Shown: positions 12,132 to 13,703 of the stretch, one piece after another | How positions within the stretch are numbered: the stretch's first letter is position 1 | Layout of the letters: each line of letters begins with the position of its first letter | Source: Chloroflexota bacterium | GTDB lineage: Bacteria; Chloroflexota; Dehalococcoidia; Bin125 | Length of the DNA: 30,733 bases | Assembly (NCBI GenBank): GCA_026705105.1 | Contig: JAPPBK010000395.1 | Span: 1-30,733, forward strand | Direction: 5' to 3' | Notes under the pieces: model-generated | What the model saw: the letters and a program-made list of their open reading frames with translations, nothing else | Told to the model about the DNA's origin: nothing | Database searches by the model: none | Position numbers and translations under genes: made by a program

Positions 12132-13703
12132 CTACGCGCCGGAACGGCCCGGCCCTACCCCACGCCGGAGCACCCGATCGCGCGTTACAGGGCTTCCTAG
12201 AGCTTCGGCGCTCCCCGGAATGTCGATCGTGCCGTCGCCGCGGGGGATCAGTGTTCGAGGCGCCGGCGCGGCGCCGCGAAGCTGGTCCATCGTGAGGCCG
12301 ACTTCGAAGTGGCCGGGCGCGCGCTCGGAGTGCACGCCCCAACCGCTCACGCCGGCGGCTCGAGGCGCCGACCATGCAGCGGCGCCGCGGCGCATGACCG
12401 GCAACACGTACGCGCCAACGATCAGGGCGCCGACGAGGTCCTGCTCGGCGCCGACGGGATACAGGGAGGCCTGGGAGCGCATATCGTTTCTGAGCTCCTG
12501 AGTCGAACCGAGGCCGGCCCCTTCGATCTGCGCCTGGAGCGGGCGCGATCGCTCGTTCGGATCGCGCGGGATCGGCAAGTCGACGCGCCCGCTCCATCGG
12601 CCGTGCTCCCTGGCCACCAGGCGGTGCACCTCCTCGAGGCCTCGCAACTGGTCCCGATCCTCGATCCAGGCGAGAGGCTGGTACTCGTCGACCAGGCGCC
12701 GGAGCTCGGCGGCCCACGTTCTGGCGCCGCCGGGGCCGCGCCATGCGTCGAGCAGCCAGCAGCGCCCGGAGGCCTCCACACCCAGAATCACGTGAGCGGC
12801 CGACTGCTCCATGCTGATCGGATAGTGGGAACTCCCGAAGATCGCGAGCTCCTCCCGATCTGGCACTGGCCCCGCGATCAGGGCGTCGCTCGAAAGCAGC
12901 AGGCCGCCCATGCCCGCAGGGCGTCCCTGGTAGCCGGCTTGCCAGGTGCGCTCGCCCACGTTCCGGCGAATCGCTTTCAGGCGCTCGAGGCTGAACCGCT
13001 CTGGCCAAAGCGCCTCGCCCCGTTCGTTGACCGCCGGATAGTGGAGCAGCGTCCACTGATCGCCGCCGTCCTCCTGCAGGGCGAGCAGTCTGCCGACCAG
13101 GTCGTCCGCGTGCCAGCGCGTCGACACGACGACGATCGTGGACTGCTCGTAAAGCCGGCTGTAGAGGATCGATCGATACCACTCCCAGACGAGCTCGCGG
13201 TTGTCATCCTGGTCGACGTCGTCGACGCCCTTGTGCGGATCGTCGATGATCAGGAGGTCACCGCCGCGGCCGAGCGCCTGGCTGCCAACCCCGACCGCGA
13301 AGTAAACGCCCCCCTTCGTTGTGTGAAACCGGTAGACCGATCGGCTGTCGCGAGACAGTTCGCAGTCCGGAAACACCGCCCCGTGCTCCGGCGTTCGGAG
13401 GAGGTTGCGCGTCTCCCGACCCCAGGTCTCGACCAGGTCGCGGCCGCGCGAGGCGTGAAGGATTTCGGCCCGGGGCCGGTGCCCGAGCCACCAGGCAGGC
13501 AGGCGCGCGGAGCAGAGCATGGACTTTCCGTGCCGGAAGGGCTGCACGATCAGCAGGCGACGCGAGCTCGTTCCGTGGAGCGCGCCCTCGAGGTGCTCCG
13601 CGATCTCCCGAAGGTGCGGCGGCGACTGATAGCCGGGGTAGGTCAGCTCGCAGTAGGCAAGCAGCGATCGCCGCGCGGCTCTCGTGGCAAGCGAACCGAT
13701 CAC
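12132..13703 (-). CDS. terL: Terminase large subunit (523 aa); ATPase intact, nuclease motifs degenerate
   Basis: Walker A QPFRHGKS, GRGGDLLIIDDP (Walker B), STRWHADD, LWPERFS; GTG start overlapping the upstream TGA. Confidence 0.92.
   Translation of the reverse strand: MIGSLATRAARRSLLAYCELTYPGYQSPPHLREIAEHLEGALHGTSSRRLLIVQPFRHGKSMLCSARLPAWWLGHRPRAEILHASRGRDLVETWGRETRNLLRTPEHGAVFPDCELSRDSRSVYRFHTTKGGVYFAVGVGSQALGRGGDLLIIDDPHKGVDDVDQDDNRELVWEWYRSILYSRLYEQSTIVVVSTRWHADDLVGRLLALQEDGGDQWTLLHYPAVNERGEALWPERFSLERLKAIRRNVGERTWQAGYQGRPAGMGGLLLSSDALIAGPVPDREELAIFGSSHYPISMEQSAAHVILGVEASGRCWLLDAWRGPGGARTWAAELRRLVDEYQPLAWIEDRDQLRGLEEVHRLVAREHGRWSGRVDLPIPRDPNERSRPLQAQIEGAGLGSTQELRNDMRSQASLYPVGAEQDLVGALIVGAYVLPVMRRGAAAWSAPRAAGVSGWGVHSERAPGHFEVGLTMDQLRGAAPAPRTLIPRGDGTIDIPGSAEALGSPVTRDRVLRRGVGPGRSGA

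Follow-up and report, generated by a model that had tools for sequence, protein, structure and literature searches.

A phage terminase large subunit with intact ATPase motifs and an apparently dismantled canonical nuclease site in a Chloroflexota metagenome-assembled genome

The 30,733-nucleotide stretch of DNA analyzed here (referred to below as the window) is the whole of contig C229 in a 2.7-Mb, 474-contig metagenome-assembled genome (MAG) of a Chloroflexota bacterium (~70% G+C). It carries a phage head-morphogenesis module in which the gene for the terminase large subunit (TerL) adjoins that of the portal protein. The ATPase motifs of this TerL are intact, and in its C-terminal RNase H-like domain the catalytic Asp at the end of strand beta1 is replaced by His, together with additional replacements by which the canonical nuclease active site appears to have been dismantled. 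The same central replacements are found in the two closest relatives, and comparison with one of these shows that the protein is under purifying selection. On balance, we lean, by a modest degree, toward a pseudo-nuclease TerL that has become fixed in its lineage within the Terminase_6/T4-gp17-like family.

The TerL gene (Table 1) is located in a 754-aa open reading frame (ORF) at 12132..14396 on the minus strand, where the GTG codon at 13703 is the most likely true start; in a GTGA coupling arrangement, it shares bases with the stop codon of the 92-aa gene that precedes TerL. The product matches PHROG 38 ("terminase large subunit") at E 8e-62, the match to Pfam Terminase_6N is below threshold (19.3 bits, cut-off 22 bits), and no match of Terminase_6C to the C-terminal domain was found in the Pfam scan. 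In the N-terminal domain the Walker A (FRHGKS), Walker B (LLIIDD) and coupling (STRWH) motifs are all present, as are the family-invariant ATPase columns (K60, D154, D155, R183, R196, H198, D200 and D201), which agrees with an earlier prediction from the sequence of the window (below, the original prediction) that the ATPase is intact. Judged by these residues, the protein appears to have the additional-strand, catalytic-glutamate (ASCE) ATPase domain that is characteristic of the Terminase_6/T4 gp17-like family.

The C-terminal domain is predicted to adopt an RNase H-like fold. An AlphaFold2 (AF2) model of TerL shows a confident TerL fold with a mean predicted local distance difference test (pLDDT) score of 84.4, where most of the nuclease domain is found at 80-96, and the order of strands and helices in residues 263-440 agrees with that of the RNase H-like core. 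Foldseek returned full-length matches to TerL of the T7-like phage PhiV-1 (8dgc_E, 1e-16), to T4 gp17 (3cpe, 9e-13) and to the D6E, HK97 and Sf6 TerLs, as well as matches to the isolated nuclease domains of G20c (5m1f, 6e-5) and RB49 (3c6a, 9e-4). At the sequence level, a profile of canonical nuclease domains matches positions 12420-12854 (E 3.7e-12) and nothing else across the whole MAG. In the model, His293 ends beta1 (residues 287-293), Asp349 ends beta4 (346-349) and Asp422 starts a helix (422-431), i.e., the three residues are predicted to occupy the classic RNase H positions.

Searches of the PDB with single sequences yielded nothing useful; profiles alone reached the G20c/P74-26 and T7-like TerLs. 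A profile of 18 canonical nuclease domains was aligned to the nuclease chains of G20c/P74-26 (E ~7e-4) with an offset of 252, which places the Asp of the family DYT motif opposite G20c D300, the conserved Glu opposite D347 and the conserved Lys opposite K377. K372, a residue named in the P74-26 paper, is also recovered with this offset. The K377 mapping is a residue count along this alignment, while the family HDD motif was assigned to G20c H427-D428-D429 from the identical motif, its location where the last core helix begins, and an alignment with "HDDRIDA" of a T7-like TerL, so that Asp422 would be the equivalent of the metal-A ligand D429. With these assignments, the equivalents of D294, K377, D428 and H427 appear to be replaced in the window TerL, and those of D347 and D429 kept.

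The roles of these residues are known from mutagenesis. According to work on the G20c enzyme (PMC5389553), D294, D347 and D429 cannot be dispensed with; the first of these is expected to bind both metals, and cleavage is abolished in the D294N variant; mutants of D428 display a significant drop in activity, H427A is impaired and the charge of D300 is not essential. For P74-26, PMC5389665 reports that cleavage is almost abolished in D294A and severely reduced in K377A, with DNA binding kept in both variants, and describes K377 as "absolutely critical for DNA cleavage".

The replacements were found to be specific to a small clade. Of 8000 candidates scored in a word-indexed homologue search, 208 proteins had E <= 1e-5, and 17,944 proteins passed E <= 1e-3 when 1.84 billion representatives were scanned exhaustively with HMMER; 22 and then 59 of these homologues were aligned. 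The 59-sequence consensus, ..YxxSDxA...DxTV..V.GVD and FPxGxHDDxVDAL, matches the family motifs that the original prediction had given, and the strings that it had quoted from the window are found in place (IFGSSHYP at 12842-12819, EQSAAHVILGV at 12809-12777, GAEQDLVGAL at 12452-12423 and the His codon CAC at 12827-12825). Three of the aligned sequences, the window TerL (P0001; P0002 is its identical database copy), P0003 and P0004, differ from the remaining 56. All three have His at position 293 (Asp in 55/56 others), Pro at 295 (Ala in 53/56), Asp at 349 (Glu in 52/56), Pro at 382 (Lys in 56/56) and Tyr at 415 (Phe in 55/56). Asp422 is common to the three proteins and to 54/56 others. At the remaining positions the three read, in the order P0001/P0003/P0004, E/Q/E at 420 (His in 40/56), Q/H/C at 421 (Asp in 55/56) and G/D/D at 425 (Asp in 55/56).

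This picture was retained when 267 proteins were aligned to a hidden Markov model (HMM) built from the 59-sequence alignment, which gave 298 rows, 248 of which span both the beta1 and the last-helix sites. The beta1 column holds Asp in 244/248 rows, i.e., in every family row outside the clade, and His in four (P0001, P0002, P0003 and P0004); position 382 is Lys in 240/248 rows and position 422 is Asp in 247/248. The loss of the first RNase H-like catalytic Asp, as originally predicted, is therefore confirmed by alignment with the closest homologues, where the substitutions are confined to the trio, and, judged from these columns, the exchange of Asp for His is far from what would be expected by chance. 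The additional claim that further Asp residues are lost stands for the first Asp of HDD; the last Asp of this motif (Asp422) and the mid-domain acid (Asp349) are kept. A complete metal-binding triad (beta1 Asp, beta4 Asp/Glu and last-helix Asp) thus does not appear to be present, nor do the active-site Lys and the His-Asp pair that precedes the last Asp, in place of which Pro382, Glu420 and Gln421 are found. Of the three indispensable metal ligands, one seems to have been lost, and with it three residues in supporting roles; the triad as a whole is not gone.

The two relatives, P0003 and P0004, are 72% identical to the window TerL and harbor the same His293 and Pro382. Only one cluster at >50% identity, represented by P0003, was found in the exhaustive HMMER scan, and the clade consists of three sequences. 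The gene of P0003 is on a 15,251-nt viral contig (L014) found in an IMG/VR scan with P0003; P0004 was compared at the protein level. Other sources of DNA from close relatives yielded little: a metagenome scan gave distant TerLs only (26-37% identical), a scan of genome contigs gave no match, and among 64 genomes from the order to which the host belongs nothing matched at E <= 1e-20. L014 is syntenic with the window from 20260 down to ~8800, a region that includes the capsid, portal, 92-aa and TerL genes and extends beyond these, and the structural module is open over ~11 kb. The His293 codon is CAC also in L014.

The ratio of nonsynonymous to synonymous divergence (dN/dS) between the window and L014 TerL genes was determined by the Nei-Gojobori method (NG86) with bootstrap 95% ranges. 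The values obtained were 0.193/0.908 = 0.21 (0.15-0.30) for the ATPase domain, 0.231/0.706 = 0.33 (0.21-0.47, median 0.32) for residues 263-440 and 0.181/0.741 = 0.24 (0.15-0.38) for the nuclease core (residues 286-432), where the amino-acid identity to L014 is 75.5%, compared with 72.8% in the ATPase domain. Because His293 and Pro382 are present in both lineages, purifying selection acted after the catalytic residues had been lost. Simple decay of TerL, against which the original prediction had already argued, is unlikely because the same state is found in two 72%-identical relatives and the nuclease-domain dN/dS is ~0.3. In comparisons matched for ATPase identity at 35-50%, the nuclease-core identity is 21-22% between the trio and canonical TerLs and 30-31% between canonical pairs (the pairs are non-independent), which would fit a stem lineage that changed in a burst and then came under constraint again. 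Positions 420/421 read EQ, QH and EC across the three proteins (the motif at 420-422 being QHD in P0003 and ECD in P0004), and this variation suggests that constraint is relaxed exactly at the old active site, as expected if the site is no longer selected. No variant within the TerL gene was found in contigs of two sponge-metagenome studies; these contigs are not independent support because the runs may be the source samples.

These observations are consistent with a sequence of events in which the two-metal site was dismantled before the trio diverged (beta1 Asp to His, the DNA-contacting catalytic Lys to Pro, and HDD to xxD), while the ATPase motor and the folded C-domain have remained under purifying selection. 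TerL would then still translocate DNA into procapsids, and the C-domain may be kept for non-catalytic jobs, i.e., docking to the portal and holding of the DNA at initiation and termination, as proposed for phi29 gp16. The packaging cuts would be made by something besides the canonical TerL site, either an unrecognized nuclease among the ORFans or a host enzyme. We infer, on these grounds, a loss of cleavage activity and a division of labor between translocation and cutting. The more far-reaching proposal, a tailed-phage lineage without protein-primed replication in which TerL is purely a motor and the cuts are made by a separate, unrecognizable nuclease or the ends are made otherwise, is put forward tentatively and with some doubt.

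Any such scheme requires another way of making DNA ends, and the searches for one gave negative results. No protein-primed family B DNA polymerase (PolB, PF03175) was found at E <= 1 in the whole MAG including the window (completeness of the MAG 89%; part of the contig may be missing). The protelomerase catalytic domain and HNH_3 gave no match in the MAG, and HNH (PF01844) gave seven MAG matches, none of which is on this contig. A relaxed-threshold Pfam scan of 24 ORFs revealed no nuclease family, PHROGs likewise revealed no other nuclease, and no Rep was recognized in the window in Pfam and PHROG scans. Protein-primed replication of phi29 yields unit-length genomes, which is why this phage need not cut its DNA. 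Because no such route was found here, either an unrecognized nuclease cuts the DNA or a remodeled TerL site still works.

Several points weigh against a pseudo-nuclease. With no substitute cutter found, an essential step is left unexplained. Asp349 and Asp422, two of the three indispensable carboxylates, are kept in all three proteins, although conservation across so small a set (three proteins at 72% identity) says little for or against, and the new residues His293, Pro295, Pro382 and Tyr415 are all conserved in the clade, which also fits a re-tooled site. The profile alignment to G20c ended just short of HDD, where the correspondence comes from motif identity and helix position, and dS values of ~0.7-0.9 are high for pairwise NG86 in 70% G+C DNA. 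In addition, His can ligate metals, and the SPP1 TerL is reported with His for one active-site Asp (PMC7672431). The apparent inactivation noted in the original prediction is best described as a probable outcome: the canonical site seems to be dismantled, with the exchange of Lys for Pro and the loss of the HDD His as further signs that had not been claimed, but the triad is lost only in part.

The retained carboxylates would be accounted for if the nuclease were remodeled and still active, with His293, Asp349, Asp422 and perhaps Glu299 or Glu300 in the beta1-beta2 loop forming a non-canonical metal site, or with His acting as a general base, possibly at another metal preference, lower activity or tighter regulation. 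The conservation of His293, with an identical codon in L014, the purifying selection on the nuclease domain and the lack of an alternative route to DNA ends in the element are all compatible with such a site, as is the participation of G20c His427 in an extra Zn site (PMC5389553). However, a change of metal ligand does not account for Pro at the K377 equivalent, the equivalents of H427 and D428 vary freely among the three proteins, Asp425 is lost too in the window TerL, and the milder change in D294N is already sufficient to abolish the activity of G20c. We regard a remodeled, active nuclease as the main rival reading, though a rather unlikely one. No RNase H-like nuclease is known to us that carries His in place of the first (beta1) residue, and no search for one was made.

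An element that is defective, decaying or dependent on a helper, such that the full function of TerL is no longer needed, was also considered, in view of the binning of the contig in a MAG, its ParA and integrase genes, and the presence of two other Terminase_6N-type genes on other MAG contigs. This explanation is difficult to reconcile with the occurrence of the same substitutions in two 72%-identical relatives, one of which is on an IMG/VR viral contig, with the intact TerL ORFs in all three cases, with dN/dS of 0.21-0.33 across both domains, and with the open, syntenic structural module. Furthermore, a helper TerL that cuts would normally package too, leaving no need for the present ATPase, which is nonetheless the part of the protein that is conserved best. 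No positive evidence for the helper dependence raised in the original prediction was found, and we consider a defective or dependent element improbable. Even less probable is another suggestion of the original prediction, namely that the tyrosine recombinase or a Rep acts at repeated palindromic sites to provide unit-length DNA in advance, such that the motor needs no nuclease. The window does contain four 38-nt sites, nearly identical and each with a 14-bp palindrome, one of which follows the end of the TerL gene at a distance of ~290 nt, and it encodes a tyrosine recombinase, but Xer/integrase-type enzymes exchange strands and leave no free ends, the searches gave neither a protelomerase domain in the MAG nor a recognizable Rep, and the sites, which are found 0-250 nt upstream of ORFs in the same orientation and look regulatory, are absent from L014 despite the shared TerL changes.

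The "22-bp sites" of the original prediction correspond to these four copies of a 38-nt element, which are 97-100% identical and contain a perfect 14-bp palindrome, CGACCTCGAGGTCG. No further copies are found anywhere in the MAG, and none in the 15-kb syntenic L014; the sites do not seem to be tied to the state of TerL across the clade. Because each copy is located just upstream of an ORF and in the orientation of that ORF, the elements are probably operator or regulatory sites. The idea that the repeats encode a shared protein N-terminus ("MPIDLEVEN") was rejected, since the copy at 5154-5193 lacks an equivalent ATG and another copy opens a frame of 36 codons only. The perfect inverted copies at 3866-5193 enclose a 1252-nt segment ~600 nt from the tyrosine recombinase gene, which could be invertible; no evidence of both orientations was seen in the public contigs compared. 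The 38-nt repeats are points at which public assembly contigs and graphs are interrupted. Position 72 is linked directly to 5154, in a repeat copy, by a contig in each of two runs, and a further contig deviates from the window sequence over 55-72; the initial ~72 bases may be a misassembly or may border on a fifth copy of the repeat.

Table 1. Positions of the features discussed, in window coordinates
Feature	Position	Strand	Description
ParA	368-979	+	PHROGs/Pfam
Xer/integrase-type tyrosine recombinase	2257-3276	-	Phage_integrase and SAM-like N-domain
38-nt element, copy	3861-3906	+	
38-nt element, copy	5154-5193	-	
38-nt element, copy	11816-11847	-	
38-nt element, copy	29417-29455	+	
TerL gene	12132..13703	-	523 aa and stop; GTG start 13703 (likely); ORF list, PHROG, Foldseek
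TerL ATPase domain	12918..13703	-	residues 1-262; motifs, pLDDT 92-99
Walker A FRHGKS	13521-13538	-	K60 codon 13524-13526
Walker B LLIIDD	13239-13256	-	
Coupling motif STRWH	13110-13124	-	
TerL RNase H-like "nuclease" domain	12384..12917	-	residues 263-440; AF2, Foldseek, profile match
His293 (CAC)	12825..12827	-	replaces beta1 catalytic Asp (G20c/P74-26 D294)
Asp349	12657..12659	-	Glu in the family; equivalent to G20c D347, metal-B ligand; acid kept
Pro382	12558..12560	-	invariant Lys in the family; equivalent to P74-26/G20c K377
Glu420-Gln421-Asp422	12438..12446	-	His-Asp-Asp in the family (G20c H427-D428-D429); last Asp alone kept
Gly425	12429..12431	-	Asp in the family and in both close relatives (VDA motif)
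TerL C-terminal tail	12135..12383	-	residues 441-523; predicted disordered, pLDDT <50
92-aa gene	13700..13978	-	between portal and TerL; translationally coupled to TerL
Portal	13975 to ~15950	-	PHROG 12082 "portal protein", E 6e-85; start approximate
Tail protein	15960-17021	-	PHROGs/Pfam
Major capsid protein	18129-19088	-	PHROGs/Pfam
PKD-repeat protein	20050-21786	-	PHROGs/Pfam
Amidase-like protein	22305-23831	+	PHROGs/Pfam

The gene neighborhood of TerL is that of a head-morphogenesis module, which is syntenic in L014. On the minus strand from 19088 down to 13978 the order is unusual, i.e., the major capsid protein, three genes, the portal, the 92-aa gene and TerL, so that the terminase is found downstream of the head genes and not at the start of the module, both in the window and in L014. 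The 92-aa gene is possibly the small terminase subunit (TerS); this candidate assignment is unsupported by Pfam, PHROGs, the comparison with TerS of phage Pam1 or the Atlas, where the neighbors are viral hypothetical proteins of 90-100 aa, and the region is conserved in L014. The distal part of the TerL tail (12135-12270) is rich in Arg, Gly and Pro, has low confidence and extends ~40 residues beyond the stop of P0003 and P0004; between the end of this tail and the next gene there is ~290 nt of apparently non-coding DNA.

Many of the remaining ORFs lack a family assignment. The PKD-repeat protein (579 aa), which is probably a surface or tail adhesin, contains four K319L-like PKD domains encoded by ~300-nt repeats at 20299-21306 (-), two copies of which are 88% identical. 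A 646-aa protein encoded at 24201-26138 displays weak similarity to a virion structural protein family and harbors tandem 87-nt (29-codon) repeats at 25580-25952 (+); the product of the gene that follows weakly resembles a "pilot protein for DNA ejection". Neither a terminal overlap nor a terminal inverted repeat was found at the contig ends, and the cluster record of the TerL protein lists a contig of 30,816 nt. Elsewhere in the MAG, the other Terminase_6N-type genes (G000:C107:2668-3270 (+) and G000:C141:1339-1971 (-), which lie within frames open for 416 and 494 aa) could be part of further prophages or of a gene transfer agent (GTA)-like cluster, and neither matches the nuclease-domain profile of the present family.

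With canonical Terminase_6/T4 gp17-like TerLs the window protein shares the two domains, all ATPase motifs, the RNase H-like fold and the adjacency to the portal gene, and it is 30-48% identical to hundreds of metagenomic members of the family. It differs from these in having His for the beta1 Asp, Pro at the K377 equivalent, an HDD motif without the His and the first Asp, and a C-terminal domain that is not recognized by Terminase_6C. The nearest isolated phage is the Pseudanabaena phage Pam1, whose TerL is 37.9% identical over residues 17-424. The Pam1 genes are arranged in the order TerS-TerL-portal-scaffold-capsid, in contrast to capsid ... portal, 92-aa gene, TerL in the window, and the 92-aa protein has no similarity to the Pam1 TerS. 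The SPP1 terminase G2P also has a His within the TerL nuclease active site, but according to PMC7672431 this residue is found at the last-helix position in an active nuclease with an intact beta1 Asp, while in the window TerL the beta1 Asp itself is replaced and more is lost. The SPP1 precedent is thus at a different position and does not explain the exchange of Lys for Pro.

To our knowledge, every tailed phage that packages from concatemers is taken to have TerL nuclease activity, and the phi29 group is the only textbook exception. No natural nuclease-dead TerL outside this group was found in a full-text literature search or in the available portion of a 2026 review (PMC13595956). The phi29 vestigial domain is too diverged to reveal how the nuclease was lost. 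The present clade may offer a natural separation-of-function mutant of a terminase, with which one may ask what the nuclease domain does beyond cutting, and it points to a possible unknown route of genome maturation, where the key question is who cuts the DNA. In addition, it serves as a warning that the label "terminase large subunit" in an annotation is no guarantee of a nuclease.

The closest functional parallel is the phi29 packaging ATPase gp16, an active motor with an RNase H-like domain that has lost catalytic residues. PMC7672431 and the review PMC13595956 describe this domain as a vestigial, inactive nuclease that still binds DNA, and it is thought to be kept for interactions with DNA and the portal (PMC7672431). 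In gp16 the C-domain has shrunk, an entire helix is missing, and no similarity in sequence to TerL nucleases can be detected, whereas the C-domain of the window TerL appears full-sized and is readily aligned, with none of the reduction seen in phi29, which implies that the loss is comparatively recent. The two systems differ also in the supply of DNA: phi29 has protein-primed unit-length DNA and a packaging RNA (pRNA), and no protein-primed PolB was found in the window or in the 89%-complete MAG, where the contig itself may be incomplete. With these differences in mind, we consider it somewhat more plausible than the opposite that the state of the window TerL is comparable to the vestigial nuclease of gp16, but recent and still alignable. 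Should the more far-reaching proposal made above also hold, DNA translocation and DNA cutting would have been uncoupled in terminases a second time, independently and recently in evolution, and the intermediate state could still be read in the sequence.

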